This document shows positions 5,047-29,186 of a stretch of 38,183 bases of DNA, piece after piece. Made by a program: the position numbers and the translations under genes. The notes beneath the pieces are model-generated. The model was not told the origin of the DNA, did not search any database, and saw nothing but the letters and a program-made list of their open reading frames with translations. This stretch comes from a virus. Taxonomy: Duplodnaviria > Heunggongvirae > Uroviricota > Caudoviricetes. Each line of letters opens with the position of its first letter. Positions within the stretch are counted from its first letter, which is position 1. The DNA lies in the IMG/VR virus record IMGVR_UViG_2541047893_000009, positions 1-38,183 of that record; one strand, 5' to 3'.

Positions 5047-5051
5047 ACCGG

Positions 5052-10164: not shown

Positions 10165-10285
10165 TTTACTAAGTATTTTTACTAAGCATTTCAGTAAGTG
10201 TTATACACGTATTTTCTACTAAGTGTTTTACCAGACATACACGTGTTTTCATAAACAGCCCTATAAGTGTTTTCATTAAGCATTG
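10165..10285. repeat. Iteron-like cluster of ACTAAG[TC]-containing repeats
   Basis: ttttactaagtattttt, actaagcatt, cagtaagtgtt, ctactaagtgtttt, tataagtgttttcat, cattaagcatt within about 120 bp in an ORF-poor AT-rich tract. Confidence 0.4.
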
Positions 10286-11147
10286 CTGTACACATTGCTT
10301 TGTCTGAAACACATCCAGTTTAGTAAATCTTTACGTTAGCTAAAATCAGTTTAAAGCTGCTGTAAAACCTTTTTGTTTAAGCAATCAATCTGCTATTCGA
10401 TTTTACTGATGTTGCGTTTAACCTTTTCTGAGTTTTTGTGTTTTTAGTCGTTAACCTGAGACAAGTGTCTTTACGTAAAAACGCAAATCCGACTGAGATA
10501 ACCTGGTGTGATTTACGGTGTGCTTGCGACGATTTTGTTAAATGGTTCTATGGATGATTTTGTGACGATGAGATTGATGAGATGATTAACTGGCCCTGGT
10601 GTTTTTTCTCAGTGCAAGGTGATTATCTTTATCATAAGGCTCTTTTCAGAAAAAGCGTGATGATTGGTTCTGGTGTTTTGATTCAGATGAGATTTACGTT
10701 ATCGATGGTTAATCGTTTTTATGGTGTGTTGAAAAGTAACGTTTTCAGGATAAGAAAATCGATTCTGATATTGGTGAACTTTGTTCTTGTGGCAGAGTTA
10801 TCTGTAAACAGGTTTTAAGTGCGCTATTCGGCTCTGTGATTGAGTTGTGTGGTTAAGCTGTAGGTTTTGGTGTTGTTGTTGATTTGCATTGCCAGGAAGC
10901 GTTCTGGTTGCGTTTCTGGTGTTTTGTTCGAATGTTCTGTGGATCCTTTTCCCTTCAGGCTTTTCTCGTCGTCCATGTCGTTTTTAAATCTATTCATGCT
11001 GTTGTTGCGTGTTTTGCTGCTGTGTGCAGGATTATCTTTTCGTTCCGGGATGGTTTGTTCCGTTTCAATCACTCTTAATCAGAGAGTTGTAGCATTGCTC
11101 AATGCCGGATGCCGTAAAGTTTTACCGCGTTGATGAATGATGTGAAG

Positions 11148-11280
<133 letters not shown>

Positions 11281-11309: not shown

Positions 11310-11699
11310 TTACTCTTTTTTCTCCGTATCTACATCGGGTTCATCAGCAAATAGCTTGCCCTGCATCCGATCCAGTTCTTCTTTTCTTACCCGCTTAACC
11401 ACGCTGTAGACCCACTGAAGCGAAACACCAAATTTGCGGGCCAGTTCATGGTGGTTACGTCCGTTAAACTCCCTGAAGATTTCCCGGTCGCGCTGACTGA
11501 CCTTCCATACCATGCCCATCGGGAAATAAACGTTTTGCCCGCCCCAGACCTGCATCATGCGGTTCGCGACGGCCTGACCAATCTGGTCGGCAATTGCGGG
11601 CTCAATATCAATAATCTCGCGAACGGTCTCAGAGGTATGCTGTGCCAGTTCCACCAGGAGTTCCGGCCCTTTACTTCGAAACTGATTCAGGTCGCTCAT
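11310..11699 (-). CDS. mor: Mor/C-family transcription activator (middle/late gene activator)
   Basis: 129-aa ORF, the same length as Mu Mor; the C-terminal HTH region ...REIFREFNGRNHHELARKFGVSLQWVYSVVKR is typical of the Mor/C family; last gene of the early operon. Confidence 0.85.
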   Translation of the reverse strand: MSDLNQFRSKGPELLVELAQHTSETVREIIDIEPAIADQIGQAVANRMMQVWGGQNVYFPMGMVWKVSQRDREIFREFNGRNHHELARKFGVSLQWVYSVVKRVRKEELDRMQGKLFADEPDVDTEKKE

Positions 11700-12123
11700 G
11701 TTTTACTCCCGCAGCTCTGTGCTGCCACTTCTTCAGTTTCTCAATAACACTGCTTGCCTGTTCAGTATTGAGCCAGCGCAGGGCGCTGATGCCCGTTTCC
11801 CGCTTGATCCACCGCGCTAATGCATTTTCTGAACGGTCACGAACAATGCCGGCAGCAGCCATTTCAAGCCATAGCGCACGGATTTTCCTGGACTGCGGAT
11901 GGTTATCCAGCGGTAAACCGGAGCTGGCTTTTCCGGCAGGCTTAACGCGAAAGCCTTTCCTTTTCATGGATTCCAGCACGCAGTTTAGTTGTGTGGTATC
12001 CATTCCTTTGGTTGAGGCTTTACCGGTCAGCCCCTGTAACATCTGGCGGTAGGTGTCTTCATCCATACCCAGTTCATTACGGGCAATATGAATGAGCTGG
12101 ATAAGACGTTGTTTAGTCATCAT
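11671..12123 (-). CDS. GemA-like protein (Mu gp16 family, DUF1018)
   Basis: Start at the ATG at 12123 (MMTKQRLIQLIHIARNELGMDEDTYRQMLQ...); lies immediately upstream of and overlapping mor, as gemA does in Mu; family from memory. Confidence 0.65.
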   Translation of the reverse strand: MMTKQRLIQLIHIARNELGMDEDTYRQMLQGLTGKASTKGMDTTQLNCVLESMKRKGFRVKPAGKASSGLPLDNHPQSRKIRALWLEMAAAGIVRDRSENALARWIKRETGISALRWLNTEQASSVIEKLKKWQHRAAGVKHERPESVSK

Positions 12124-12328
12124 CGTTGCTCCTTTTACCTGCGCCACCGATATAATCGACATATAAAGGAAGCGCCACAGGCCAGCACAGGAACATCACC
12201 GACCAGCTAATCCAGTAGCCGGCACCACTGTAACGTGAATAAAACCCTGAACGGCGGTGCAGTTCAGCAGTACACCAACCGGCAAAACAATACCAGAACA
12301 GGGCACATACAACAGATTCAGCCGTCAT
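12113..12328 (-). CDS. Small hydrophobic membrane protein (about 71 aa)
   Basis: Internal ATG at 12328 gives MTAESVVCALFWYCFAGWCTAELH...MFLCWPVALPLYV with two hydrophobic segments; tightly packed in the early operon. Confidence 0.4.
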   Translation of the reverse strand: MTAESVVCALFWYCFAGWCTAELHRRSGFYSRYSGAGYWISWSVMFLCWPVALPLYVDYIGGAGKRSNDDD

Positions 12329-12544
12329 TCTGAATATCCCCCCAACTGATATGAATATTACGGGCAGCAATGACAGGGTCGTTATTCCACCATGCACCTG
12401 ACATGTATTTTTCAACCTGTTCGCGTCCGGCAATAACACCAATTGTGATCCCCGGCCTGACGTTCTTAAAAAAGGCGCGGGCAAAAAGGTATCTGGCAGA
12501 TATTCGGCAGGCTTTTAATTTCCGGCTGTTACCTGATAGCGTAA

Positions 12545-13228
12545 TCATCTGGCCTCCAGTTTCTGTTGTTCCTGCCCACTGACCGGGCGGTGCAGTCTGA
12601 CGTTCTGCCCTTCACGAAACCCCGCATAGCGCGAGGCGTCGCCATTGCGGCTTCTTCCCGGTTTACGCGCCCTGGTGGTTTGCGTTTGCGGGTATTTATG
12701 TTCCAGCCACTGTTGCATCAGTTCACGCTCATCATCGGTCAGGGCAAAGGACTGTATTTCACTGATAACGGCCAGTACCCAGCCTTCAGCAAACTGGTTT
12801 CCACGGCTGGTACGGGTGGCGTTTTTTATTCTTTTGTTCTGTGCGCTGATATACTGCTGACGCGCCTTTTTCAGTTGGCGGACCAGCACTTCCCAGGTGT
12901 ACGCAGCCAGTGCCGCTCGTTCCCGGTTACCGTAGAACCCCACAGACGGATGCGTGCCGGGGTGAATGATGGAGTTAACACCAAATGCCTCGCGGATGAT
13001 GTTCATCAGGCCCAGCATGTAGCGCGGTGGACGGAGACTGCCTGTCGGCCAGTAATGACTGATGGTTTCATCAATATCACTCATAGCAATGTCGGAATGT
13101 GTGATGCCGTGAACATCCATCAGTTTACGGGCTCGGCGCAGTGCCAGAGCGGCCTCGTGCGGGTTGCCGGATGCGGCCAGCGCCAGCAACTTTTTCAGTT
13201 TCTCAATGTGTTTATTCTGGTCTGTCAT
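12545..13228 (-). CDS. Early-region hypothetical protein, DUF2786-like N-terminus
   Basis: Start at the ATG at 13228 (MTDQNKHIEKLKKLLALAASGNPHEAALALRRARKLMDVHGI...); the N-terminal motif is recalled as DUF2786-like and common in phage early regions. Confidence 0.5.
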   Translation of the reverse strand: MTDQNKHIEKLKKLLALAASGNPHEAALALRRARKLMDVHGITHSDIAMSDIDETISHYWPTGSLRPPRYMLGLMNIIREAFGVNSIIHPGTHPSVGFYGNRERAALAAYTWEVLVRQLKKARQQYISAQNKRIKNATRTSRGNQFAEGWVLAVISEIQSFALTDDERELMQQWLEHKYPQTQTTRARKPGRSRNGDASRYAGFREGQNVRLHRPVSGQEQQKLEAR

Positions 13229-13440
13229 TGTTCTGTATCTCCGGTATTTTTCTGCCGTTTCCATGCCCGGACAGCGTCGGACAGCTCTTTCAGGCTGTAT
13301 GCTGCTTTAAGCTTTTCCCATAACCACTGTGTTGTTATGTGCATCAGCAGGGCAGCCAGGGCTGCCCCCGCACTGAGGCATGTCGCCAGGCCAGTAAGAA
13401 TCAGTGTCCATGCGGTGATTTCCCTGAGTATGTCAGCCAT
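13225..13440 (-). CDS. Small membrane protein (71 aa)
   Basis: Hydrophobic core WTLILTGLATCLSAGAALAALLM; its stop overlaps the start of the next gene. Confidence 0.4.
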   Translation of the reverse strand: MADILREITAWTLILTGLATCLSAGAALAALLMHITTQWLWEKLKAAYSLKELSDAVRAWKRQKNTGDTEQ

Positions 13441-13454
13441 TGAATGCCTCCCGG

Positions 13455-13751
13455 TTACTCGTTCGTGTAAATCACGCCCAGTCGTGCAGCCAGACGTTCC
13501 AGTTTTTTCTGTTTGTGGAAGTCAATCAGCCGGTCCATCCCCTGAAGGCGCAATTGCTCTGTCATGATTTCCACGTCTGCCAGCTCTGCCGCGAGGTCAC
13601 TTTCGCTGCCCTGTCCGTTCAGATTGCGGGCAGCACTGGCCGCCAGTTCAGCGGCCTCTTCTGTCAGTTTCAGGGCCTGTGCGTCCGGCCCGAAACGCTG
13701 CAGGGCCAGACGGTAGAGGGCGGTGCGGGTGAGTATGGTGTTCCGTGTCAT
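13455..13751 (-). CDS. Early-region hypothetical protein (98 aa)
   Basis: ORF co-oriented with and tightly spaced within the early operon; no recognised motif. Confidence 0.45.
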   Translation of the reverse strand: MTRNTILTRTALYRLALQRFGPDAQALKLTEEAAELAASAARNLNGQGSESDLAAELADVEIMTEQLRLQGMDRLIDFHKQKKLERLAARLGVIYTNE

Positions 13752-13760
13752 GCCGCGCCC

Positions 13761-14033
13761 TCAGTGCTTCCGGCTGACGGTGATGTGCAGGCCGCCTTCT
13801 GCAGTGGTTTCCATCCGGTACGGCACCTCATGCTCTGCCGTGTGGGTGAGTGTGTTCACCAGTACCTGCAGGGCAGCCGCCTTTCCGTTGGTCGCCACAA
13901 TGGCCTGAGCGGTCATGCTGATTAGCGCCGTCAGGACGTGCTTCACATCGGTGAGGTCGCGGCATTCACACTCGTTGACATAGTGTTCAACAAGGGTTCG
14001 GGTGCGCTGTCGTGCTTCCTGTGGGGTAATCAT
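13761..14033 (-). CDS. Early-region hypothetical protein (90 aa)
   Basis: ORF co-oriented with the early operon; its start overlaps the stop of the upstream gene by 4 nt. Confidence 0.45.
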   Translation of the reverse strand: MITPQEARQRTRTLVEHYVNECECRDLTDVKHVLTALISMTAQAIVATNGKAAALQVLVNTLTHTAEHEVPYRMETTAEGGLHITVSRKH

Positions 14034-14224
14034 TGCGAGTCCTCCCTGTCAGGGCGGGAGAATTCCATGACGGGCACGTCTGCCGAAAAATGCTGGCTGC
14101 AGTACGGGCAGACCAGGGTGACGCGTACCGCAGGGATGTGGTATTTACCGGACATCACGGCGATGGCGCTGTGAAAACGCAGGGCTGTTATATCCCTCTC
14201 GCACTGAATACATTTAAATATCAT
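14030..14224 (-). CDS. Small zinc-ribbon-like protein (64 aa)
   Basis: Two CxxC pairs (CIQC ... CPYC) about 35 residues apart; co-oriented with the early operon. Confidence 0.4.
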   Translation of the reverse strand: MIFKCIQCERDITALRFHSAIAVMSGKYHIPAVRVTLVCPYCSQHFSADVPVMEFSRPDREDSQ

Positions 14225-14321
14225 GATTTAATTCTCCTCTGTTTCCGGCGTGCAGAAGCCCGCGGCGCTGACGCCGGAATAAAAAAGAAAATGTTTTTAT
14301 TAAATAATTAACGTGGTGTGT

Positions 14322-14852
14322 TTACTGCACATCCTGCTCAAAAGGAATTATTGAAAAATCCTCAATGTCGCTTTTAATGGAAATACCGGGAATATTTTTC
14401 ACGGCCTCTTTTTCATTCAGGATAGCGTCTTTATTTATTTCCTCTTTTACACGAATAAAGCGCTCAAGCCCCAGACGTCTCAGTAATTCAATAACATTAT
14501 CCGCCCCACGGATACTGACTGATGGCGGACGGTTTCGCCACTGCACCTCGCCGGTGGTGAGGTTAGCGAACTTCACCTTCCCGTTGCCGGTCAGTTCATC
14601 ACGGTGTGCCTCACACCATGTCTGAATACCGGACTGCAGTTCGGCCATGCGTTTTTTCAGGCTCTCGGTGAGCGGGGCATAACGTGCGGTGATATCGCCA
14701 ATGGCGTCATTCATTTCTGTTTCAGCCCTGACCAGTTCACGTTGTGCGTCACCGAGTAGTCTGATTCCCTCAATGACCTCTTCACGTGTCCCCGGCACCC
14801 AGAGTGCTGCTGCGGCCTTGATACGTTTTGCACCTTTTGTACTTTTTGCCAT
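14322..14852 (-). CDS. gam: Gam-like host-nuclease inhibitor (Mu Gam family, dsDNA-end binding)
   Basis: 176-aa translation shares long blocks with Mu Gam as recalled (MAKSTKGAKRIKAAAA..., TEMNDAI, WCEAHRDELT, RPPSVSIRG, GLERFIRVKEEINK, SDIEDFSIIPFEQ). Confidence 0.9.
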   Translation of the reverse strand: MAKSTKGAKRIKAAAALWVPGTREEVIEGIRLLGDAQRELVRAETEMNDAIGDITARYAPLTESLKKRMAELQSGIQTWCEAHRDELTGNGKVKFANLTTGEVQWRNRPPSVSIRGADNVIELLRRLGLERFIRVKEEINKDAILNEKEAVKNIPGISIKSDIEDFSIIPFEQDVQ

Positions 14853-14879
14853 TTTTTATGATTTCTCCAGTTGTGCTGA

Positions 14880-15149
14880 TTACCACAAAGATTCCGGCCA
14901 CACGACGCGACAGCCGTGCAGTTCGAAAACGCCCTGACGGAAATATCCCCTGTGGTCATGTCCGGTATACAGATAACAGGCCTTTCCCTGCTCAAGCATG
15001 CGCATGCAATGCGCACTCCGGGAAACGCGGATGACAGGTTTGTTACCCCTGATGGTGATGCTTTGTACATCCGTGTTCGTCGCCTTAAGCGCCATAATGG
15101 CTGACTGCACTTTGCTGATTTGCTGGTTGATACCTGTGGTGGATTTCAT
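14880..15149 (-). CDS. Early-region hypothetical protein (89 aa)
   Basis: ORF between the B-like and gam genes; its start overlaps the B-like stop; no recognised motif. Confidence 0.4.
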   Translation of the reverse strand: MKSTTGINQQISKVQSAIMALKATNTDVQSITIRGNKPVIRVSRSAHCMRMLEQGKACYLYTGHDHRGYFRQGVFELHGCRVVWPESLW

Positions 15150-15151
15150 TA

Positions 15152-16318
15152 TTAAACCCCTTTGACAACGTCAGCGTTGACCTGTGGAACCCCGATTTCA
15201 GCGGCCAGATTCATGGCGGCTATTACCAGGTTACTGACGGCCAGCGGATACAGCAGGCTGACCATATTTTTACGATGACTTCCCGGATTGCTCAGGCGGG
15301 CACGTATGGCATCCACTGCGCTGGCGTCCATAATGTCCGTCAGTTGTTTACCGGCCCGTTGCAGTTTGAACGTCAGAAACTCTTCAAGGTTATTGTCCAG
15401 AGGCAGAAGTTCGACCACCTCACAGCGCTGAACGACTTCACGGACTTCCATATTGCGTTCAGACAGTTTTGTCGCCAGTTCCGGCTGGCCAATCAGCACG
15501 ATGGACAGCAGTTTTTTGAAACCGGACTCCAGCTCAAAAAAGCGTTTGAGGTGTTTCAGTGTCGGAATGGGCAGACTGTGGGCCTCCTCAATCACCAGAA
15601 CGTGGCTGAACCCCGCCTGGCTGCTGTCTTTCAGGACGCGATGCAGCTGGCGAAAGCGGGCGTCCTGACTGCGTCTGATGCTTTCCAGTGGTGCGATGGT
15701 ACTGATAATGGCTTCGGCAATCGCTGCTGCCTTCAGGGTTTTCCCTTTCACATCGTTGTCTTCCATAGCGATGATGTATGGCTCGATAACAATCACCGGC
15801 GCATTCTCGCGGTTGATACGTTCAGTCAGGTCACGGCGCAGCGTGGATTTACCCGCACCGGACTCACCGATGACGGCCATAAACCCACCATGACGGGCTG
15901 TCTGGTACAGCGCCTCACGCACGTAGCGAATGTCCGGAGTGGTGAACACATCATCAGAACCCTGCATGGCTTCGTCGGCGAACGGGTCACGGAAAAGACC
16001 AAACGCTTTTTTGGTTGCTGGAAATAACACCTGTTTTTTGAGTAACATATTCTCTTCCTCACTGAGGCTCGTTTTATCTGTGGTACCCGCTGTACGGGGC
16101 GTGGCCGCGCCCTGTACAGCATCAAAACTCTTCGTTGTATCAATCCCCTGACTTTCCAGCCAGGACGCAAGACGCCGGCGCACTTCTCCGGGGCTGGTGC
16201 GGGGCCACGCGTTATGATTCACAATCTGGGCCAGCGTGGCCTCAGAAACATCGACAGCTCTCGCCACCACCGCCTGTGGAATACGGGCCTCTTTCAGTTG
16301 CTGCTTCAGTACCAGCAT
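15152..16318 (-). CDS. MuB-like AAA+ ATPase (transposition target-DNA activator)
   Basis: Walker A GESGAGKST and an N-terminal HTH-like segment; start set at the ATG at 16318, which has a strong SD (GAGGAGGG); the track ORF starts at 16345 and would overlap the transposase gene; follows the transposase gene as in Mu. Confidence 0.85.
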   Translation of the reverse strand: MLVLKQQLKEARIPQAVVARAVDVSEATLAQIVNHNAWPRTSPGEVRRRLASWLESQGIDTTKSFDAVQGAATPRTAGTTDKTSLSEEENMLLKKQVLFPATKKAFGLFRDPFADEAMQGSDDVFTTPDIRYVREALYQTARHGGFMAVIGESGAGKSTLRRDLTERINRENAPVIVIEPYIIAMEDNDVKGKTLKAAAIAEAIISTIAPLESIRRSQDARFRQLHRVLKDSSQAGFSHVLVIEEAHSLPIPTLKHLKRFFELESGFKKLLSIVLIGQPELATKLSERNMEVREVVQRCEVVELLPLDNNLEEFLTFKLQRAGKQLTDIMDASAVDAIRARLSNPGSHRKNMVSLLYPLAVSNLVIAAMNLAAEIGVPQVNADVVKGV

Positions 16319-16328
16319 GTATCCCTCC

Positions 16329-18098
16329 TCAGTTGCCGTTAACAATGCTGATAACGCTGCTGCGGGCCGGCGTGGTCAGCGTGGCCATGACTTCATCCAG
16401 TGCGGCTTCCGGTACGCCGTCCGGATACTGTGCCGTTAACTGGCGGTAATGTTCCGGCGTCCAGGTAAGGCCGTCGGCGCTGAACTTATCGCGCAGGGCT
16501 TTCGCGGCCTCCACATGAGTCATGGGACGTTGTTCAGTGCGCGGCCCGCGTACGTCAGAGGCCTGACCTCGCTTCGGCATATAGGCCGGAAGTGTGGCGT
16601 CATCAATATGTTTATATGGGTCAAGCCGCCCGCCGAACGGCAGCGCCTTCGCCTTGCGTGCGGCAGCTGCATCTGCGGCGTTGTCTGTACCGGTGACCAG
16701 CGCTTCGGTTTCTTTTGCCGCCATCTGCGCCGGGGTTTCCGGCAGGGCTTTGTAACTTTCGCCAAATACCGCCGCGCCTTCAGCAAAGCCAAACTCGTTC
16801 TTTCTGACTTCTTCGACCAGGAAGAACGTCTCGTGGCCGTCCTCACCGGTCAGAACCACCTGTGCCACATCGCTGCGCCACGGGTTACGGGTAATCATCA
16901 GTTTTTCACCGACCAGTACGCCCGGTACCGTTGATACGTCAAATTCAGTGCCCCGGAACGAGACACGAAGTTTTGGCGTGACTTTGCGGAGTTCTGGTGC
17001 CGCCACAGCCAGTTCACGACATACCTCAACGGAAGGCGCTTTTTTCAGCTGCTCAGCAGTAATCTTCAGCCAGATATCCGTGCGGGTTTTACCGTGGCGG
17101 CTGTGAACAGCCGTGGCGTTAAAGTGGCTGCGCCATTTCGCGGCCAGCGCATTGAGTTCTTCCAGACTGTGAACCGGCCGGAACTTCAGACCCGGCTCCA
17201 GCTTGCGTTCGATAATGTCCCGCGCCTTTTCCACCTGTCCGGTGGCGCGGGCGTTATGCGGCTTGTGCGCTATCAGGTCGATGCCCAGTGAGCGGCACAT
17301 GTTTTTCGTCATACCCGCGGTGTTTGCCGAGCCGGGGTCGAGATAGAGTATTTTTGGCACGCCGTGCAGCACGTCTGCGCCGCCACGCTCCTGCATGGCG
17401 TTGATAAGCACAGAACACAGGTTCTCACCTGATTCCGCGCCCGTCACATACTCAACGTAAATCCAGCCGCTGGCATGGTCGGTAATCTCGTAACTCCACA
17501 CGCGGTCACTGGCGATACGGGCAAGGTTAGCGGGCTTGTTCTTGTAGAACTTCGCGCTGTCCATCACCTGCAGCCCTTTATGTCCATTGCTCAGGTAGTA
17601 AAGCGTGCAGAGTGAGGCGTCAATCTGCCAGACATGATTGGGGTGCAGACTGGCCACTTCGGTATGCGGTGCAGGAGCATCCAGTTGTTCCGGGTGCAGG
17701 CCATAGTTACGCAGAGCACGGCTGATGGCATCTTCAGACAACGGGAAAAACTCACCGGTGGTTTCATCTGTTCTGCCTGCGGTGATAAAGCCGTTAGCCC
17801 GCAGGGTTTCCACTGCATCTGCGATGGAATAGAGGCGTTTACCGTTCTTGCGGGTGGCCTCACGCAGTGTGGCAGATATCAGCGCGGCTTCGTCGCGGGT
17901 CAGGGCGCTGCGTCCGGCATCAGCGCGTTTTTTGCGTTTATCAGTCACAGAGACCTCCTTCAGCCTGCGCAGCAGAGTGGCGCGGGACATGCCAAGTTCA
18001 GCACAGGCAGCGTCGTATATTGCACCGCGTTTACCATGCCCCGCGTCACGTGCCGCGCGGGCGACATAAACCAGTCGTTCAGTCAGGGCAGCATTCAT
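16329..18098 (-). CDS. DDE transposase of the Mu A type (N-terminal HTH, rve/integrase catalytic core), shorter than MuA
   Basis: 589-aa ORF with a retroviral-integrase-like core region (WQIDAS..., LYLDPGSANT...); paired with the downstream MuB-like ATPase and Gam. Confidence 0.85.
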   Translation of the reverse strand: MNAALTERLVYVARAARDAGHGKRGAIYDAACAELGMSRATLLRRLKEVSVTDKRKKRADAGRSALTRDEAALISATLREATRKNGKRLYSIADAVETLRANGFITAGRTDETTGEFFPLSEDAISRALRNYGLHPEQLDAPAPHTEVASLHPNHVWQIDASLCTLYYLSNGHKGLQVMDSAKFYKNKPANLARIASDRVWSYEITDHASGWIYVEYVTGAESGENLCSVLINAMQERGGADVLHGVPKILYLDPGSANTAGMTKNMCRSLGIDLIAHKPHNARATGQVEKARDIIERKLEPGLKFRPVHSLEELNALAAKWRSHFNATAVHSRHGKTRTDIWLKITAEQLKKAPSVEVCRELAVAAPELRKVTPKLRVSFRGTEFDVSTVPGVLVGEKLMITRNPWRSDVAQVVLTGEDGHETFFLVEEVRKNEFGFAEGAAVFGESYKALPETPAQMAAKETEALVTGTDNAADAAAARKAKALPFGGRLDPYKHIDDATLPAYMPKRGQASDVRGPRTEQRPMTHVEAAKALRDKFSADGLTWTPEHYRQLTAQYPDGVPEAALDEVMATLTTPARSSVISIVNGN

Positions 18099-18101
18099 TG
18101 G

Positions 18102-19016
18102 TTATGCCTCCAGCCCGTTAATCTGTGGCGTCGGCTCAGTCAGCCATGAAGGCGCGGCATTGCCTGTTGGCTCATCCGGCAGGTCAAATGTGGAGCGCAG
18201 GCTACGCGCTGTGCTTTCCAGTTGACAGACCAGGCCTGCCATGAAGTCTCTGGGGGTATCAATCATGTTTTCAGCACAATATGCGCACAGCGTCTCAAAA
18301 GCGCTGGACAGTCGAACGGCGATAGCAGATTCCGCCTCAACCGCTAATGCTGTCACTTCCGCCCGCAGCTTCTTAACCTCTTCATCAGGCTCAGGCGGCT
18401 GAATACGGGATTTCTTCTCCAGTCTGGTGGAGAGTGAGTCTATTTTTTCATTTTTGTCAGCGAGTACGCGCTGTTGTGCTGCGTTGGTTTCGCGCGCTTC
18501 GCGCAGGGCCTGACGCAATTCACGTACTGACATGCGATCAACGTCGTCAAGCGTCAGGCCGGCAACTGTGCCGCCGTCGGCCAATTCATCAAGTTCTTCA
18601 TTATCCAGAACCATCAGGTCGTACAGTTTGGCTTTCCCCAAAACGCTCAACGTTGAGCGTTTTGTTGGCTCATCACCTTCTCCCAAAAACTTCATACTGG
18701 CTTGCATCATGCGGCGAGCAACTTGTGGTGCAAGTCCGAGTTCATTTTCTAAAATGTTTGTAAAATCACCGTGTGGCTCATTTTCTTTTAAGATGATCAG
18801 CCGCTTACCCGCTTCCAGCATAGATTCAGCACTCTGCGCCATATAAAAACGTGCTTCGTGAACAATGCGATCACGTTCATAAGGCAGTCCATCACCAAAC
18901 TGCTGCATAATTTCCATGCGATGCTGTGTCATAGCGTTCAAATTGACATTGATGTTATCTGACAGCGGAACCTCAACATTCAGTTCAGTGTTAACGGGTG
19001 ATTTGGTGCGTCCCAT
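18102..19016 (-). CDS. Early-region hypothetical protein with coiled-coil segment (possibly DUF3102-type)
   Basis: 304-aa ORF whose stop lies 3 nt before the transposase start; family uncertain. Confidence 0.5.
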   Translation of the reverse strand: MGRTKSPVNTELNVEVPLSDNINVNLNAMTQHRMEIMQQFGDGLPYERDRIVHEARFYMAQSAESMLEAGKRLIILKENEPHGDFTNILENELGLAPQVARRMMQASMKFLGEGDEPTKRSTLSVLGKAKLYDLMVLDNEELDELADGGTVAGLTLDDVDRMSVRELRQALREARETNAAQQRVLADKNEKIDSLSTRLEKKSRIQPPEPDEEVKKLRAEVTALAVEAESAIAVRLSSAFETLCAYCAENMIDTPRDFMAGLVCQLESTARSLRSTFDLPDEPTGNAAPSWLTEPTPQINGLEA

Positions 19017-19026
19017 TGATTACTCC

Positions 19027-19335
19027 TTACAAACGACTACCTGAAATAACTCGTTGGTTGATTTCGTTAATACGATCCTGTGCACGCGCCATCTCGTGAC
19101 TGTGAGCCATGGCGATCTGTAGTAACTGGATTCCCGGTGCGAAACGTCCGTTCTCTAATTTCATGGCCAGTCCCTCTTCAATAAGGGTATTAAGTGCTCG
19201 ATTGATATTCGCTGGGGACTCCCCCAGGGCTGATGCCAGTTCACCGTTAGAAACACCGTTCAGAGCATGACCGCGTAGAGCTTTGAGTACACGTAGGATG
19301 CGGGTCCCAGAACTGGAAATATTTACTTTACTCAT
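19027..19335 (-). CDS. Putative winged-helix transcriptional regulator (about 102 aa)
   Basis: Start set at the ATG at 19335 (MSKVNISSSGTRILRVLKAL...); HTH-like segment GVSNGELASALGESPANINRALNTLIEEGL. Confidence 0.5.
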   Translation of the reverse strand: MSKVNISSSGTRILRVLKALRGHALNGVSNGELASALGESPANINRALNTLIEEGLAMKLENGRFAPGIQLLQIAMAHSHEMARAQDRINEINQRVISGSRL

Positions 19336-19387
19336 GTCACATTTCCATTTTTGCAATATGTGATAACCTGTTGCATATGTGGAAAAT

Positions 19388-19576
19388 TTATGCCGCATTT
19401 GACGTGGGTTTTAATCCCAGTTTTACGGCAATTTCATGGGCTTTGCCGTAACGAGCTTTGGTCTGTCCATTGAGAACACGATAGACCTCATTGCGGCTGT
19501 AGCCGTGTTCTTCGGCCCAGCGGGTAAACGTGATACCACGCTGACGGAAGAGATTTTTAACTTGTTCGGAAGTCAT
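19388..19576 (-). CDS. Ner-like/Cro-like small DNA-binding protein, first gene of the early operon
   Basis: 62-aa ORF divergent from the repressor gene; GYSRNEVYRVLNG...GKAHEIAVKLGLKP resembles the Ner family HTH and C-terminal pattern as recalled. Confidence 0.6.
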   Translation of the reverse strand: MTSEQVKNLFRQRGITFTRWAEEHGYSRNEVYRVLNGQTKARYGKAHEIAVKLGLKPTSNAA

Positions 19577-19626
19577 TGTTGTCTCCTTTGTTGATGCAAT
19601 GATGTTTGTTTTATATGTGATAGATT

Positions 19627-20088
19627 ATGAGAACTATTATTCTCATTGTCAATGAGGTTTATGTGAATTTTGATTCTCTTTGCGCGTCGCGGTTCAAAGC
19701 TGAGCGTTCGCGGTTATCACTCAAGCAGGCTGAAGTAGCAGCCCTTTGTGGCGTTTCAAGAGAAATGTGGGGGAAATATGAACGAGGGGTTGCTGTTCCC
19801 GGAGGTGAGTTACTTGCAGCCTTTGCAAGAATTGGGGCCAATGTACAGTTCATTCTTACCGGGGAGTCATCAGGTATAACTTTATCACGTGATGAAATGG
19901 AGTTACTGCAGCACTACCGGCAGGCACCATTACAGGTCAAAGGTTCAGTTTTGTCGGCCTTGACTACTGGCTCCTCCAGAGAACGGGCGGAACAGGTTAT
20001 TCATGGAGATGTTCTGGGGAATGTTATCAAAGGTAACGTAACCATAGGAACAGGTGGAATAATGAACAAAAATACCAAGAGAAGATGA
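19627..20088 (+). CDS. XRE-family HTH repressor (candidate prophage immunity repressor)
   Basis: HTH LSLKQAEVAALCGVSREMWGKYERG; divergent from the early operon. The true start is possibly the in-frame GTG at 19663, because the ATG-initiated N-terminus overlaps the operator-like palindrome. Confidence 0.75.
   Translation: MRTIILIVNEVYVNFDSLCASRFKAERSRLSLKQAEVAALCGVSREMWGKYERGVAVPGGELLAAFARIGANVQFILTGESSGITLSRDEMELLQHYRQAPLQVKGSVLSALTTGSSRERAEQVIHGDVLGNVIKGNVTIGTGGIMNKNTKRR
19642..19656. promoter_or_regulatory. Candidate operator: perfect 7-bp inverted repeat CTCATTG-t-CAATGAG in the divergent repressor / early-operon control region
   Basis: Palindrome read directly at 19642-19656, between the Ner-like start (19576) and the body of the repressor gene. 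Confidence 0.4.
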
Positions 20089-21071
20089 GTAAAGAGAAGC
20101 AAACAGTTAACGGGGATGTGGGTAACGTTGTCAGCGGTGATGTTACCATTCATAACTATTCTGCTGACATACTTCCTTCGGCCCAGCAACCAATTTCGTT
20201 GCTGCAAAAACGCGATTTACACAGATTGATGGATGAATTGGTTGATCTGGGGGAAAGTAAGCGCGAGCTATGGATGACGATCCACACGAAACTTAATACC
20301 AAAACAGTTAATGAAATGACTGCGGCTGATTATCATGGTGCGGTTGAGATCCTTCAGAGATATGCACAACAGATCCAGAATATGAAGGACTGTAATCTTC
20401 TGGTCAGCAAAATAATGGCGCTTACTGACCCTGGGTATCGTCTTGACCGTGACAGATACTGTCTGAAGCATTTCGGTACAACCCATCTTAAAGGCCTAGA
20501 CAAAGAGCAGTTGCAGGCTGTGTTTGGTTATTTTGATGATCTGCTGAATATTCGTGATGAGAGTAAAACTCTATCACCTCCATCGGAAAGCGGTGCAAAA
20601 TCAGTCGCAACTGTACCAACCAGAAGCCGGAAGCCTCATGTAGTAGTGTTGGGGGGAGTGTTAGTTCTTGTAGCAATATTTTTCGTGGGAATGATTGTGT
20701 TCGCTGGTAAATGGGGAAATGCCAAAGCAGTAGCTTCTACTGAAACCAGCGTTTTTAACATTAAAACCAACAATAAAATAATAGAAGATTCCATCCCCGC
20801 ACTGCGCAGCATGTTTCCAGGGTTAAATAAGTACTCAGATGATTTCCATTCGGTTTCAAGCTACAAGCAAAAAACGGGCTGGCATACCCTTAAATTTACT
20901 GTATCAGCAAAGGCATCCGTCCCCGAAAATTATAGTGTTAAGGGCAAGGTTTGTTACATTAACATAAGCCCTGATGGTAGTTATGCTCGGGTTTTGACTG
21001 CTCCATGTCGTTCACTGCTACTTGATCAGCAAAGCACTCCTGACAGTAAATACCGTTTTATTCTTAAATAG
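20085..21071 (+). CDS. Single-pass membrane protein of unknown function (328 aa), translationally coupled to the repressor
   Basis: Its ATG overlaps the repressor stop (ATGA); central TM helix HVVVLGGVLVLVAIFFVGMIVFAG; AT-rich; N-terminus shares a GDV-GNV-G-VTI motif with the repressor C-terminus. Confidence 0.6.
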   Translation: MSKEKQTVNGDVGNVVSGDVTIHNYSADILPSAQQPISLLQKRDLHRLMDELVDLGESKRELWMTIHTKLNTKTVNEMTAADYHGAVEILQRYAQQIQNMKDCNLLVSKIMALTDPGYRLDRDRYCLKHFGTTHLKGLDKEQLQAVFGYFDDLLNIRDESKTLSPPSESGAKSVATVPTRSRKPHVVVLGGVLVLVAIFFVGMIVFAGKWGNAKAVASTETSVFNIKTNNKIIEDSIPALRSMFPGLNKYSDDFHSVSSYKQKTGWHTLKFTVSAKASVPENYSVKGKVCYINISPDGSYARVLTAPCRSLLLDQQSTPDSKYRFILK

Positions 21072-21152
21072 AAAATAACAGCTGAATTACCATGGGATCA
21101 GAAAAAAGACAAAGGCGGCATCATGCTGCGTTCTGAAATTTTAATGTAAAAG

Positions 21153-21743
21153 GTGATGAACATGGCAGGGATTCAGGTTATCGCAGGAAGTTTTCCTAAA
21201 GGGTGGGCAAGCATGGGGTTCGGTACCATCGTGTTTGCCAAAAAACCAAAACAAGGCTTTCCTGAAAATATTGTATTAAATCTGAAAGAAGAGCTTTTAT
21301 CGATTGAACTTGCGGATAGTGAAGAGGAAAGCCGTATAGGTAAGGCGGCAGGCGCAGGTTTGCTTGGTGGATTAATCTTTGGTGGTGCAGGGTTGGTCAT
21401 TGGAGGTTTGCTTGGTGCGGCGGACAAGACGAAAAAAACTATCACTTTTAAGGCAATGTTTACGGGAAATAGGTTACTTCTGGCTAAAACAGATTCAAAA
21501 ACTTTTGTAAAACTTCAGTCAATTGCTGCTGATAATGCCCATAACGCATCTGTAATCAACATGAAGCAAACTAATAGGGGCGATGTTTCTTCTCGTAAAC
21601 AACTAACAGAAAATCCACAGCAGCAAGACTTACCTGCGCCCGCTACAACAGTAAAAATGACTGCCAAAGATAAGTTAGAATCGGCTCTTGGGCTGGGAAT
21701 CATCGTTATAGCTGTTTGGGCAATAATACACTTCTTTTTTTAG
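21153..21743 (+). CDS. Glycine-zipper membrane protein of unknown function (about 194 aa)
   Basis: AAGAGLLGGLIFGGAGLVIGGLLGAA glycine-zipper TM segment plus a C-terminal TM (LGLGIIVIAVWAIIHFFF); the likely start is the ATG at 21162 with AAGGTG upstream; followed by a terminator. Confidence 0.6.
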   Translation: MMNMAGIQVIAGSFPKGWASMGFGTIVFAKKPKQGFPENIVLNLKEELLSIELADSEEESRIGKAAGAGLLGGLIFGGAGLVIGGLLGAADKTKKTITFKAMFTGNRLLLAKTDSKTFVKLQSIAADNAHNASVINMKQTNRGDVSSRKQLTENPQQQDLPAPATTVKMTAKDKLESALGLGIIVIAVWAIIHFFF

Positions 21744-21744
21744 T

Positions 21745-21770
21745 GCAGCCCTTCAGGGCTGTTTCTGTTC
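21745..21770 (+). terminator. Rho-independent terminator (stem CAGCCC/GGGCTG, loop TTCA, then TTTCTGTTC)
   Basis: Hairpin read directly, 2 nt after the stop of the 21153-21743 gene. Confidence 0.6.
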
Positions 21771-21780
21771 AGGAGGTATC

Positions 21781-22257
21781 TTAAGGATTATCCGGGGCGT
21801 TTTCCTGTTTGCCGTACTTCGGAGACGAACAACATTCTGTTGGCTGACCGGTGAGTTTACGTAACTCCTTCATGAGCAGCTCCTGATCGTAAACTGTCAT
21901 CAGTGCCGCAATGGTGGCATGCAGTGCATCGGGCAGTATCCAGGGTTGCCGGCCCGTGGGGCATATAACATCCAGCAGCTCATTCGTCCGACAGATACGC
22001 TCCTCGCCGTATGACAACAGGCCCTGTCCCGTGTATTCCTCTAGCCTGATCACTGTGCCACCCCGTGGCTTCTGCCAGGTCGTCAGATCTTCGCCATTCA
22101 TACGGCGCTCATTCTCCACGTCAGCAGCATCGACAATGACGCTGTTTCCGAGTTCCTGTTTCACCATCTCTTCTATCCGCGCCAGTACGTAACTTTTACC
22201 GCTGCCCACAGGACCGGACACAGTGACAGTGATGACCGGATTCAGTGTGTGCGTCAT
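21781..22257 (-). CDS. Small P-loop NTPase/kinase-like protein (158 aa)
   Basis: Walker A VSGPVGSGKSYV and a possible Walker B SVIVDAAD; convergent with the repressor-linked operon and divergent from the late operon. Confidence 0.55.
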   Translation of the reverse strand: MTHTLNPVITVTVSGPVGSGKSYVLARIEEMVKQELGNSVIVDAADVENERRMNGEDLTTWQKPRGGTVIRLEEYTGQGLLSYGEERICRTNELLDVICPTGRQPWILPDALHATIAALMTVYDQELLMKELRKLTGQPTECCSSPKYGKQENAPDNP

Positions 22258-22387
22258 ATCGTATTCTCCTCTGTGAATAATTCATCGTTTATCCTGCACA
22301 TCCCGTATCCCCGGCTCTCTTAACGCGCTTTAAAATCCTTTGCGCCCTGTATTTGTGATGCTGTCTCCACCAAACGAGGAGACACAC
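22258..22387. promoter_or_regulatory. Divergent promoter region: likely Mor-dependent late promoter for the lysis/late operon and promoter of the P-loop gene
   Basis: 130-bp intergenic between divergent genes; inferred from Mu, where C-dependent late promoters precede lys; no motif confirmed. Confidence 0.3.
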
Positions 22388-22738
22388 ATGAAAAACCTGA
22401 AAAAATTCATTCCCCCTGTTAAAAAACCTCGCCTCAGCGGCTGGCTGCTGACCTCAGTGCTGTTGCTGGGCACCATCGCTCTGGTCTCACCACAGCAGCT
22501 GCCTGTTGTGATCTACAAGCTGGCACTCATCACGCTGGCAGCAGTGCTGGGTTACTGGCTTGACCGTTCGCTCTTCCCCAAAGCCCGTCCCGGTCAGTAC
22601 CTGAAACATGACGACAGGCTGATGGCTGAAGGGCGTTTCCCGGTACAGACCGGCCTTCACCTGGTGTTTTCTGCTGCGTTAATCCGCCGTGCACTGATTG
22701 TTGCAGCGGTCTGCCTGGCTGTTGCGATGGGGCTTTAA
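22388..22738 (+). CDS. Putative holin / multi-TM membrane protein (116 aa)
   Basis: ATG at 22388 with GAGGA SD; three hydrophobic segments; immediately upstream of the endolysin gene. Confidence 0.5.
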   Translation: MKNLKKFIPPVKKPRLSGWLLTSVLLLGTIALVSPQQLPVVIYKLALITLAAVLGYWLDRSLFPKARPGQYLKHDDRLMAEGRFPVQTGLHLVFSAALIRRALIVAAVCLAVAMGL

Positions 22739-22740
22739 TC

Positions 22741-23481
22741 ATGAACTGGCCGCAGATCACCTGGATTGTATGCATGTCCCTGAAACTGGCTTTCGAAGCC
22801 TTTCGGGTCTTCATCAGAACCGAACGCCTGTCAGTCCGCGCCGGGACCTTTCTGGTTCATATGGCATGGGTATTCTTTGTCGCAATGTTGCTCTGGTGTG
22901 GCGGCTTTTTCAGCCAGGCATGCGCAGCACAACCTCCGCAGGCTGCGCTGCAGTATCGCGATGATGTGATCCGTAATGCCCGGCTTGAATGGGGACTGTC
23001 TGCGCCGGTGGCCGATTTCGCCGCGCAACTGCATCAGGAAAGCGGCTGGCGACCTGATGCGATCTCGCCGGCTGGCGCTCAGGGACTGGCGCAGTTCATG
23101 CCTGCCACTGCCGACTGGATAAGCCAGTTGATACCGATGCTGAGCAGTCGTGAGCCGTTTAATCCGGCATGGGCTATCCGGGCGCTGGTCAGCTATGACC
23201 GCTGGCTGTGGCAGCGTGTCAGCGCCGCCAGTGACTGCGAGCGTATGGCCATGACACTGTCGGGCTATAACGGTGGTCTGGGCTGGGTACAACGGGACAG
23301 GCGGCTTGCATCACAGAAAGGTCTGGACAGCACCCGCTGGTTCGGACATGTCGCCACGGTGAATGCCGGACGCAATGCGGCCAGCTGGCGGGAGAACCGC
23401 CATTATCCGCAGCGCATCCTGCGCGAACTGGCACCGCGATATCTCACATGGGGAGGCAGCAGTTGTGTGGCATCTGATTAA
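22741..23481 (+). CDS. Endolysin, lytic transglycosylase (SLT domain), with a probable N-terminal signal or signal-anchor
   Basis: SLT signature AQLHQESGWRPDAISPAGAQGLAQFMPATA; hydrophobic MAWVFFVAMLLWCGGFF segment (alternative start at 22861). Confidence 0.8.
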   Translation: MNWPQITWIVCMSLKLAFEAFRVFIRTERLSVRAGTFLVHMAWVFFVAMLLWCGGFFSQACAAQPPQAALQYRDDVIRNARLEWGLSAPVADFAAQLHQESGWRPDAISPAGAQGLAQFMPATADWISQLIPMLSSREPFNPAWAIRALVSYDRWLWQRVSAASDCERMAMTLSGYNGGLGWVQRDRRLASQKGLDSTRWFGHVATVNAGRNAASWRENRHYPQRILRELAPRYLTWGGSSCVASD

Positions 23482-24115
23482 AAAGCTGCCGTGGCGCGGC
23501 ATTCTGCTGGCCATTCTTATCAATGCCTTTCTGGTCGGCCTGTATGCCATGGGATACAGAAGTGGTCATGACTCTGCAAAGCGTGACGGTGATACCGCGC
23601 TCAGTCAGTTGCAGTCAGCATTTGACGCGTACAAAACGGAGCAGGCAACGCTTGAGAATGCTGCGCTGCGGGCCTGGGCCAGACGGTATCAGGAGCAGGT
23701 GGCCGCCGGGCAGCGGGCTGAAGCCGGTTATCTTGAGCAGATTGCTCAACTGGAGAGCCGGAATAAACAACTACAGGGGCAAATTAACGATGTCACACAG
23801 CGCTGGATTGATGAAAAAGGTAAGAGCCATCCCATTGAGTGCGTGTTTACTCGCGGTTTCGTGCGCCAGTACAACGCCGCACTCGGATATGACAACGCAT
23901 CCGTCGACACCGGTCATTCAGACTCAGTTGCCGCCGCTGGCACCCGCTCTGGCACAGCGACCGGGCAACCTGAAACCACTGACACCCGGTTACGCGATTC
24001 GGGTGTCTCCCAGCGTGACGTTCTCGCCAACATCATCGACAACGCAGGACAATGTCGTCGCTGGCGGAACCAGATAAACGCGTTACTGGATGAACGGGAA
24101 GGATTACAGAAATGA
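23465..24115 (+). CDS. Rz-like inner-membrane spanin (i-spanin)
   Basis: Probable GTG start at 23465 overlapping the endolysin 3' end; N-terminal TM (ILLAILINAFLVGLYAMGY) then a coiled-coil-like region; the track ORF starts at 23363. Confidence 0.6.
   Translation: MWHLIKKLPWRGILLAILINAFLVGLYAMGYRSGHDSAKRDGDTALSQLQSAFDAYKTEQATLENAALRAWARRYQEQVAAGQRAEAGYLEQIAQLESRNKQLQGQINDVTQRWIDEKGKSHPIECVFTRGFVRQYNAALGYDNASVDTGHSDSVAAAGTRSGTATGQPETTDTRLRDSGVSQRDVLANIIDNAGQCRRWRNQINALLDEREGLQK
23811..24077 (+). CDS. Rz1-like outer-membrane lipoprotein spanin (o-spanin), fully embedded in the +1 frame of the Rz-like gene
   Basis: ATG at 23811 gives MKKVRAIPLSACLLAVSC... with a lipobox-like LAVSC and a proline-rich mature region. 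Confidence 0.6.
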   Translation: MKKVRAIPLSACLLAVSCASTTPHSDMTTHPSTPVIQTQLPPLAPALAQRPGNLKPLTPGYAIRVSPSVTFSPTSSTTQDNVVAGGTR

Positions 24116-24438
24116 CACTGCAGGTTGAATTCTGGACGGTGGTGAGTTTTCTGCTCACCTTCATGGGGTTTGTGGGAGGGCTCGCCAAATGGTTGTTCAG
24201 TAAAACAGAAGAACGCCAGGCGGCACGATTCGCCTCCCTTGAACAGGCCCTGCAACAATCCGCCTCCAACTGGGGCGAGCTGGAAAAAGAATTTATGCGA
24301 TTTAAAGCGGATTTACCGCTGAATTATGTCCGTCGAGAGGATTATATCCGTGGCCAGACAGTCATTGAGGCCAAACTGGACGCGCTTTATAACAAACTGG
24401 AAGTGGTACAGCAGTACCGCAATACCGGAGGTCAATAA
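24112..24438 (+). CDS. Small membrane protein (108 aa), post-lysis-cassette
   Basis: N-terminal TM FWTVVSFLLTFMGFVGGLA followed by a coiled-coil-like region; overlaps the Rz-like stop. Confidence 0.45.
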   Translation: MTLQVEFWTVVSFLLTFMGFVGGLAKWLFSKTEERQAARFASLEQALQQSASNWGELEKEFMRFKADLPLNYVRREDYIRGQTVIEAKLDALYNKLEVVQQYRNTGGQ

Positions 24439-24749
24439 TGGTCGATATTACCCGGGTACGCCGCGAATCCCTGCGCTGGAGTCTGCTGGTTGCCCTGAAC
24501 AAGACCCGCCCTTACACCGCCAGCGAGACGCTGCTGCTGGATGTGTCCCGTGCCATCTACCCGGACACCACACCGCTGGAACTGCGCCGCGAACTGGATT
24601 ATCTGGCTGACCGTAAAATGGTTGATCTGGAGAAAAAACCTTCTGGCGACTGGTTTGCTGACCTGACCCGCCTCGGCGTAGACCTGGTGGAATACACCGT
24701 GGAATGTGGTCCGGGTATTGCCCGCCCGGAAAAGTACTGGAGTGAATAA
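24438..24749 (+). CDS. Late-region hypothetical protein (103 aa)
   Basis: ORF tightly packed upstream of the terminase genes. Confidence 0.45.
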   Translation: MVDITRVRRESLRWSLLVALNKTRPYTASETLLLDVSRAIYPDTTPLELRRELDYLADRKMVDLEKKPSGDWFADLTRLGVDLVEYTVECGPGIARPEKYWSE

Positions 24750-25294
24750 TGGCCAGACGCAGCACAATAGAAAAGCTGCCGGAAGACGTGCGCCGCTGGC
24801 TTGAACGGGCGCTGACTGAATCCGGCTTCAGCGGGTATAACGAGCTGGAGTCCCTGCTGCGTGAGCGGGGGTACGTCATCAGCAAATCCGCTATCCATCG
24901 CTATGGACAGAAGATTGAGCGCCGCTATGGTGCTATCCGTGCGGCAACAGAAGCGGCCCGCATGCTGATCGAAGGCGCAGCAGACGATCAGGATGCGCGT
25001 TCGGAGGCTGTGATAGCCCTTATTCAGACCGAGCTGTTCGAGAGTATTGTCCAGTTGCAGGAGGCGGAAGAAGGCGAAGTCGATCCTAAAGAACGCGTGG
25101 CCCTGCTGTCGAAGGTGGCGAAGAATGTGGCTACGCTGTCCCGCGCGTCCGTCAACCTCAAAAAGTTCCAGTCTGAAGTACGGGCCAGAGCGCAGCAGGC
25201 AGCCAGCAACGCCGAGAAAATTGCCCGTAAGGGGGGACTGTCAAGCGACGCAGTACAGGCGCTTCGTCGCGAGATTCTGGGGATTGCCACATGA
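24749..25294 (+). CDS. Terminase small subunit candidate (Mu gp27-like, DUF3486)
   Basis: 181-aa ORF directly upstream of and overlapping the large terminase; N-terminus MARRSTIEKLPEDVRRWLERAL...GFSGYNELESLL recalled as Mu gp27-like. Confidence 0.6.
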   Translation: MARRSTIEKLPEDVRRWLERALTESGFSGYNELESLLRERGYVISKSAIHRYGQKIERRYGAIRAATEAARMLIEGAADDQDARSEAVIALIQTELFESIVQLQEAEEGEVDPKERVALLSKVAKNVATLSRASVNLKKFQSEVRARAQQAASNAEKIARKGGLSSDAVQALRREILGIAT

Positions 25295-29184: not shown

Positions 29185-29186
29185 CA

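Follow-up and report, generated by a model that had tools for sequence, protein, structure and literature searches.

A BcepMu/B3-type transposable prophage with divergent early and late arms in an Escherichia coli genomic island

The IMG/VR record IMGVR_UViG_2541047893_000009, a stretch of 38,183 nucleotides that we analysed at its full length and refer to as the window, consists of Escherichia coli DNA in which the flank of a genomic island (positions 1-11148) is followed by a prophage (11149-38183). Its gene map was built by transferring the RefSeq annotation of identical copies and by Pfam and PHROG profile matches. All 16 genes annotated at 11310-19576 lie on the minus strand, and from 19627 to the window end more than 20 genes lie on the plus strand, the sole exception being a truncated gene at 21781-22257. 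Such a run of 16 genes on one strand, followed by more than 20 on the other, is no chance pattern. We conclude, with a probability of roughly 0.93, that the window contains the left 27 kb of a temperate transposable phage of about 37 kb that belongs to the BcepMu/B3 group, has a P2-like contractile tail and resides as a prophage in the E. coli island.

The minus-strand genes, which are read away from the repressor, include those for Mor, a GemA-like protein, Gam, B and A, and the lysis and structural genes are on the plus strand. Pfam, PHROG and RefSeq agree on this arrangement, which a preliminary description of the same DNA had already reported for 11310-24115, a span that opens at the Mor stop codon and closes with the spanin gene, whereas the element runs from 11149 to beyond 38183. 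The same description had proposed that the layout fits the organisation of the phages BcepMu (NC_005882) and B3 (NC_006548). In both of these the bottom strand carries the Mor, GemA, B, A, DUF3102 and helix-turn-helix (HTH) genes and the top strand the genes for the repressor, for lysis and for structural proteins; ORFs 1-17 of the B3 record are all on the minus strand. The two-cluster layout of BcepMu, with early genes on the bottom strand, late genes on the top strand and lysogeny control at their interface, has been described (PMC2771037), as has the inverted early operon of B3-like phages (PMC5977238).

The fit is supported gene for gene by order, strand and protein identity. The transposase A is 69 % identical over 581 amino acids to BcepMu gp09 (Tn552/IS1604-like) and 57 % identical to B3 ORF12, and the B-like ATPase encoded directly after it shares 59 % identity with BcepMu gp08 and 55 % with B3 ORF11. 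Mor is 54 % identical to BcepMu gp01, compared with 28 % for B3 and 31 % for Mu Mor, and the repressor is 39 % identical to BcepMu gp17 and 36 % to B3 ORF18. In the structural region the terminase TerL (63 %), portal (59 %), sheath (76 %, gp39) and tube (67 %, gp40) all resemble their BcepMu counterparts, whereas the B3 values are 28 % for TerL and 27 % for the portal, with no counterpart of sheath or tube. The preliminary description had suggested a whole-prophage comparison with BcepMu, B3 and enterobacterial relatives as a check; BcepMu and its enterobacterial relatives have the same order from Mor to the tail assembly gene, and the ends are homologous to those of BcepMu and B3.

Enterobacterial phages of the BcepMu kind comprise SalMu, PhotoMu, PhiKM, Klebsiella phage KP12 and Phi06_2974 B; a passage in PMC3417384 cites SalMu and PhotoMu as relatives named when BcepMu was published. 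PhiKM (PQ738613), which was isolated on uropathogenic E. coli and which NCBI files under Bcepmuvirus, shares 96 % DNA identity over 81 % of 11310-24115 and a 98.8 % identical transposase, and differs in its repressor/cargo cassette (19628-21793 in the window). A tblastn search with the transposase matched 69 phage records. Mu is not among them; they belong to B3-like Pseudomonas phages, to BcepMu-like Burkholderia phages, to PhiKM, Phi06_2974 B and KP12, and to a few more. Where a record begins at the left end, its transposase gene lies on the minus strand at about 5-8 kb. The module of A, B and DUF3102 genes is present in 641 of 5426 complete E. coli genomes (about 12 %), mostly at 90-99 % identity, and reports of Bcepmuvirus prophages in E. 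coli genomes are routine (bioRxiv 10.1101/2022.05.07.487787). Both the prophage and its layout are thus already known: this is a common, catalogued and ordinary E. coli prophage.

Near-identical copies elsewhere delimit the element. Positions 11149-38183 match the EBJ003 prophage over 27,035 bp in a single block, with 7 mismatches and no gap (99.97 %), the M-17 prophage without gaps and with 5 mismatches, and the IAI39 prophage at 99.6 %. In these three full-length copies the element reads TGATTAG...GCGCATCA and measures about 37 kb (36.9-37.5 kb), extending from TGATTAGACTT... to ...GCGCGGCGCATCA. Direct duplications of 6 bp surround it: CGTGAC in EBJ003, TAAAGC in M-17 and GCACAT in IAI39. 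This length comes from the three junction pairs compared in this analysis; a literature search for the target-duplication length of BcepMu gave no usable published value. Because one pair of ends with a 6-bp duplication encloses both arms in all three copies, both arms belong to one transposable element. The termini are of the BcepMu-like TG...CA type with sub-terminal repeats, as read from the window for the left end and from the sister copies for the right end. They align with the BcepMu and B3 ends, with which they share TGA and then a pair of GNGATAWWT sites spaced by about 22 bp at each end, and the paired GAGATAWWT repeats are likely transposase-binding sites. Four insertion loci are known from these comparisons: the island of the window, lom of a lambdoid prophage (IAI39), the tusE-yccA spacer (M-17) and gcd (EBJ003).

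The left junction in the window maps to 11148|11149, where homology to the island stops and homology to prophages elsewhere starts. The flank is 99.9 % identical, in one piece, to the CFT073 island adjoining cadC (4919569-4934447) and to the same island in B2.3. Its genes encode DUF4942, DUF957, DUF5983, CbtA/CbeA, DUF987, JAB/RadC, antirestriction, DUF932, DUF905, HTH and GTPase proteins as well as hypothetical proteins. As annotated in the 99.9 % identical DNA of B2.3 and CFT073, it thereby holds the accessory module of CP4-44/CP4-57 type (GTPase YeeP/YfjP-like, DUF932, antirestriction, RadC-like JAB, DUF987 and CbeA/CbtA). A P4-type integrase beside a tRNA gene, as at the border of such islands, does not occur in the window, and between cadC and the island CFT073 has just a tyrosine recombinase fragment. 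The empty site is found in CFT073 and B2.3, where B2.3 reads ...GATGTGAAGT|CAATCCAAATC..., the right part beginning with CAATCC. It is intergenic and lies upstream of an 'inovirus Gp2 family' gene, at 28 bp from the start codon; that gene is followed by ireA and, in CFT073, by the pap operon. Since this island DNA resumes across the site in the empty-site genomes, the comparison indicates that the phage transposed into the island and not beside it. The preliminary description had placed the prophage next to a CP4-type island and had suggested transposition into or next to it; the CP4-type module is indeed in the flank, and "next to" now gives way to "into". In the window copy TGAAGT would be the duplicated target, which predicts a right junction of ...GCGCGGCGCATCA + TGAAGT + CAATCC..., that is, the phage end followed by TGAAGTCAATCC / TGAAGTCAATCCAAATCAACGG. 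That junction lies about 10 kb past the window end, so that the window copy displays the left junction alone. Neither the predicted right junction nor the observed left junction had an exact match in the genome or metagenome contig collections, and among the complete E. coli genomes of the collection none carries the prophage at this island site. As to the surroundings, the prophage probably cuts the inovirus Gp2 family gene off from its promoter, and the leftward early operon, whose last gene, Mor, stops 161 bp short of the left end, is directed at the island. The features of the window are collected in Table 1.

Table 1. Positions, strands and supporting evidence for the features of the window
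Feature	Position	Strand	Basis
Host flank, CFT073-type genomic island with CP4-like module	1..11148	.	Identity to CFT073 and B2.3
TGAAGT, predicted left copy of 6-bp target-site duplication	11143..11148	.	B2.3 empty site and 6-bp duplications in three other insertions
Prophage left end TGATTAGACTTGAGATAAATGACAGGGAATAAGTGAGATATTTATGGG, two GAGATAWWT sub-terminal repeats	11149..11200	+	Homology start; aligns with BcepMu and B3 ends
Mor/C-family late-gene activator, last gene of leftward operon	11310..11699	-	Pfam Mor, E 1e-43
GemA (gp16 family)	11671..12120	-	Pfam GemA at 11671-12162, E 2e-40; 44 % identity to BcepMu gp02
Seven small early genes	12113..14224	-	Annotation, Pfam
DUF2786/DUF7168 protein (one of the seven)	12545..13228	-	Annotation, Pfam
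Gam host-nuclease inhibitor	14322..14852	-	Pfam Phage_Mu_Gam, E 1e-40
Small early gene	14880..15149	-	Annotation
B-like AAA+ transposition ATPase (ExeA family)	15152..16318	-	AAA_22 at 15152-16345, E 4e-20; phrog_296 'DNA transposition protein', E 1e-93
A, DDE (rve) transposase of BcepMu/B3 type	16329..18098	-	rve, E 1e-8; phrog_310 'transposase', E 5e-148
DUF3102 protein, just upstream of A (switch side), kept in BcepMu and B3	18102..19016	-	Pfam, BLASTP
Winged-helix regulator	19027..19335	-	HTH_IclR, E 2e-6; phrog_1368
First early gene, 62-amino-acid HTH protein in Ner/Cro position	19388..19576	-	phrog_925, E 1e-32
Divergent switch	19577..19690	.	Promoter, palindrome and repeat searches
Candidate leftward sigma-70 promoter	19652..19624	-	TTGACA-17-CATAAT, 11/12 match
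Perfect 15-bp palindrome CTCATTGTCAATGAG	19642..19656		Palindrome search
Two 24-nucleotide repeats	19625..19648 and 19659..19682		Repeat search
Repressor (cI/c2-type HTH)	19627..20088	+	Pfam HTH_31 and HTH_3
Two cargo genes in repressor operon, predicted membrane proteins	20085..21743	+	Low G+C; absent from PhiKM
Cargo 1, 328 amino acids	20085..21071	+	Sub-threshold Flk-like N-terminus (NCBIfam); one transmembrane helix
Cargo 2, 193 amino acids	21162..21743	+	Gly-rich segment, C-terminal transmembrane segment
Terminator-like hairpin ending repressor operon	21745..21762	+	Hairpin search
3'-truncated P-loop gene, sole minus-strand gene of right arm	21781..22257	-	phrog_3787, positions 1-157 of 242
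Presumed Mor-dependent late (lysis) promoter region, contains TAACGCGCTTTAAAATCC	22258..22387	+	Motif (weak)
Lysis cassette	22388..24115	+	Pfam, PHROG, BLASTP
Holin	22388..22738	+	Holin_2-3, E 2e-41
SLT transglycosylase endolysin	22741..23481	+	Pfam
Rz-like spanin	23465..24115	+	phrog_1403, E 4e-92
Packaging, head and tail genes	24112..36109	+	45-76 % identity to BcepMu gp25-gp41, same order
Mu gp27	24749..25294	+	Pfam
Strong hairpin before protease gene	29689..29726		z = -4.8
18-mer AAAGCAGATTAAAATCGC	29789..29806		54 bp upstream of protease gene
Sheath and tube genes	33444..35392	+	BLASTP
Tape-measure gene, cut by window end	36267..38183	+	Mapped from EBJ003 annotation

Although the two divergent arms, meeting at the repressor/HTH switch, and the order from Mor to the tail assembly gene are common to BcepMu and the window prophage, BcepMu lacks the Gam and DUF2786 genes, the window prophage lacks BcepMu gp03-gp07, and the cargo after the repressor differs. 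BcepMu is also reported to lack the Gin-type invertible tail-fibre segment of the full-length copies (PMC2771037). Proteins on the switch side are closer to B3 than to BcepMu: identity to B3 ORF13, ORF14 and ORF17 reaches 51 %, 57 % and 71 % for the DUF3102 protein, the winged-helix regulator and the first early HTH protein, compared with 41 % (gp10), 34 % and 45 % (gp16) for BcepMu. The DUF2786 protein shares 34 % identity with B3 ORF5. Conversely, B3 is a siphovirus without sheath or tube, and its head genes are 25-38 % identical to those of the window. Gam is 62 % identical to Mu Gam, and BLASTP gave no match to it in the early proteins of BcepMu or B3; it seems to be a module passed between these two types of transposable phage. 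Some B3-like phages, such as H72, carry a Gam.

At the switch, the repressor gene and the first early gene diverge 50 bp apart. The candidate leftward promoter overlaps the repressor start codon, and the palindrome covers its -35 element; together with the two 24-nucleotide repeats it makes a plausible set of operators. The G+C content falls to 0.43-0.46 over 19.6-21.8 kb, and 19628-21793 is the sole long stretch without a match in PhiKM, which has a dam methylase and other genes there. Neither cargo gene gave a significant PADLOC match or a Pfam match, and tblastn of the 328-amino-acid protein against phages gave just 25 % partial matches. Homology to PhiKM breaks at 21793, inside the truncated P-loop gene, whose product has 158 amino acids against 242 in its family; RefSeq calls it an 'ABC transporter ATPase', AAA_30 matches below threshold (E 0.003), and PhiKM has it at full length. 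This gene is probably a 3'-truncated remnant left by a cassette swap. The whole of 19628-21793 looks like a swappable repressor/cargo cassette, with the truncated gene as the scar of a swap inside the phage and not of a join. A more tentative idea, in our view less likely than not, is that the stretch is a module for lysogenic conversion or superinfection exclusion, passed along with the immunity region between enterobacterial prophages of the BcepMu type.

In the late arm, the genes after the lysis cassette are ordered membrane protein, gp26-like, Mu gp27 TerS, TerL, portal, F, G, protease/scaffold, capsid, DUF2190, gp36, gp37, sheath, tube and tail assembly protein. Homologues of gpU, X, D, V, W, J and I, annotated in the full-length copies, complete a P2-like contractile tail module. 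In BcepMu the 18-bp sequence AAAGCCGATTAAAAGACC is repeated exactly, just upstream of the holin gene and again just upstream of the protease gene. A motif search of the window found the exact motif before the protease gene alone, the other match (24297-24314, minus strand) looking like chance; 45 bp upstream of the holin gene there is a weaker relative, TAACGCGCTTTAAAATCC, with more than 3 mismatches. The protease-proximal 18-mer is preceded by a strong hairpin and a U-rich tract, between virion gene G and the protease gene, and the hairpin loop TTTATAAAGGCTTTAC and the 18-mer are common to the window and BcepMu (18729-18831) despite about 45-50 % protein identity nearby. Hairpin and 18-mer are likely a terminator plus a late promoter. 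More generally, the 18-mers may be activator-dependent late promoters, each placed after a terminator.

Further observations concern the far right of the element. At the right ends of the full-length copies stand a gene for a Gin-like serine recombinase and tail-fibre/assembly genes in opposite orientations (at 39049-40819, 35865-38149 and 36175-38459 in the sequences labelled L001, L007 and L008), an invertible host-range segment like that of Mu, and the number of tail-fibre gene fragments differs among the copies. The last 100 bases of the window (38083-38183) have three matches in the M-17 and EBJ003 copies (100 %, 98 % and 92 %), at distances of about 160 and 260 bp, which indicates a tandem repeat inside the tape-measure gene. 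This gene varies in length, with 2952 nucleotides in IAI39 and 3213 in M-17.

Phage Mu (NC_000929) provides the contrast drawn in the preliminary description, and its record confirms that the early and late blocks are co-directional: the minus strand carries c, and the plus strand carries all of ner, A, B, gam, gemA, mor, C, lys and the structural genes. Mu and the window prophage have in common temperate growth, a transposase with an ATPase partner, TG...CA ends, the Mor/C, GemA and Gam families, gp27/gp28-type packaging and, in the full-length copies, an invertible tail-fibre region. Judged by these shared parts, the window prophage presumably follows the same overall life cycle. The Mu target duplication is 5 bp, against the 6 bp in the sister copies of the window prophage. 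Mu has two activators, Mor and then C, whereas a paralogue search found no second Mor/C-family gene within the window, and the Mu switch lies at the left end beside attL whereas that of the window prophage lies 8.4 kb inside. MuA, Mu c and Mu Ner have no match in the window at E<=1; MuB has none at E<=0.1, with a single chance-level tblastn match at E 0.14. Sequence searches of the PDB with A and B gave weak matches to retroviral-integrase-core or P-loop proteins, and none to MuA or MuB.

Three other accounts of the window deserve weighing. It might be a true Mu relative, a Muvirus, whose early region was inverted by a strain-specific rearrangement. Mor, GemA, gp27 and the Gam protein are Mu-family proteins, and the full-length copies carry a Gin-like invertase with invertible tail-fibre genes as Mu does; but MuA, c and Ner are without a match, the MuB match is at chance level, the transposase and ATPase side with BcepMu, the duplication is 6 bp instead of 5 bp, and the tail is P2/BcepMu-like. 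Moreover, the layout is the same in all copies, in BcepMu and in B3, and is therefore an ancestral trait of the group rather than the product of a local inversion. The lack of MuA and MuB orthologues counts as a refutation, and we regard a rearranged Muvirus as highly improbable. We give even less credence to the idea that the two halves stem from different elements joined, by assembly or recombination, between 19.6 and 22.3 kb, the weak point that the preliminary description had itself named. The drop in G+C content between 19 and 22 kb, the 19.6-21.8-kb stretch without a counterpart in PhiKM and the truncated gene at its right edge would suit a join. Yet complete genomes from independent projects contain the same continuous 11149-38183 at other loci, BcepMu-like ends and a 6-bp duplication enclose both halves in three full-length copies, and in BcepMu and B3 the layout is likewise two-armed, variable small genes lying at the same position. 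The ungapped 99.97 % match at other loci and the enclosing duplications exclude such a join; given the uninterrupted copies and the shared layout, the G+C dip would reflect an ancient cassette swap within one phage.

It is also unlikely, if less so than either of these, that the window copy is an inactive, decaying prophage remnant. Its right third lies beyond the window, the gene at 21781-22257 is truncated in all copies, and three genes of the IAI39 copy contain internal stops. Against decay, every gene in the 27 kb matches the intact M-17 and EBJ003 genes in length, the copies differing by 5-7 substitutions without a gap. The near-identical copies at four loci, their duplications intact, point to recent transposition, and a close relative, PhiKM, was isolated as a phage. 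The broken genes of the IAI39 copy encode a gp27-like protein (17612-18157), a small tail-region protein (28258-28539) and a gpW/gp25 protein (34967-35314), and the window, M-17 and EBJ003 copies are intact at comparable positions; the copies are therefore at different stages of decay.

Several points weigh against reading the window as a BcepMu/B3-type phage that is complete and active. By blastn the match to BcepMu is patchy, with about 9.1 kb of the 27 kb aligned at 66-76 %. The switch regulators are closer to B3, which indicates that the genome is a mosaic. The right third and the right junction lie beyond the window, so that the completeness and the TGAAGT duplication of the window copy are predictions. 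Some sister copies, such as that of IAI39, have internal stops, which indicates that not every copy is active. Finally, the assignments of promoters, operators and Mor sites follow from consensus matches and a short motif, of which the holin-proximal copy is weak.

These points also bear on classification. In ICTV practice, members of a genus are identical to the type phage, over the genome, at about 70 % or more of nucleotide positions. The window prophage falls short of this level relative to BcepMu, and because the DNA similarity is too patchy under the 70 % rule we name it in the broad sense: membership of Bcepmuvirus in the strict sense is doubtful, and the sequence places it in the BcepMu group in the broad sense. 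Of the traits of that group we found the gp09-type transposase, the ExeA-type partner, the two clusters, the ends, insertion at multiple loci and the P2-like tail. Among Beetrevirus traits, the inverted early operon with B3-type A and B is present and the siphovirus tail module is absent, and the Muvirus traits (MuA/MuB orthologues, a left-end c/Ner switch and co-directional genes) are absent altogether. Taken together, the comparisons indicate a mosaic genome of the BcepMu/B3 group with a BcepMu-type myovirus body, which would work like Mu and is not a Muvirus.

From this anatomy and the known families we infer the following scheme of regulation. In the lysogen, the cI-type repressor gene would be read rightward with the two membrane-protein cargo genes, transcription stopping at the hairpin that ends the operon, and the repressor would shut the leftward early promoter that overlaps its own 5' end. 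The hairpin and the convergent truncated gene may insulate the lysis genes at this stage. Upon derepression the leftward operon would be expressed, delivering the Cro/Ner-like HTH protein, the winged-helix regulator, the DUF3102 protein, A, B, Gam, the products of the small genes, GemA and, last, Mor. A and B would replicate the genome by transposition via the TGA...TCA ends with their paired GAGATAAAT-type sites. Mor, made last, would activate rightward late promoters ahead of the holin and protease genes, and late expression would supply lysis, head and tail proteins and lead to headful packaging of the Mu type. Compared with Mu, the whole c-to-mor block is flipped, and therefore the left end adjoins mor and the switch lies inside the genome.

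The correct label for this prophage is thus BcepMu/B3-type transposable phage, not Mu-type. Expectations based on Mu, namely a 5-bp duplication, a left-end operator/enhancer and the succession of Mor and then C, are not transferable to it because the transposase, the ATPase, the duplication and the switch all differ. Insertion at nearly any site can disrupt genes, as with gcd in EBJ003 and lom in IAI39, and because such prophages are present in about one in eight complete E. coli genomes they are a frequent source of insertional variation.

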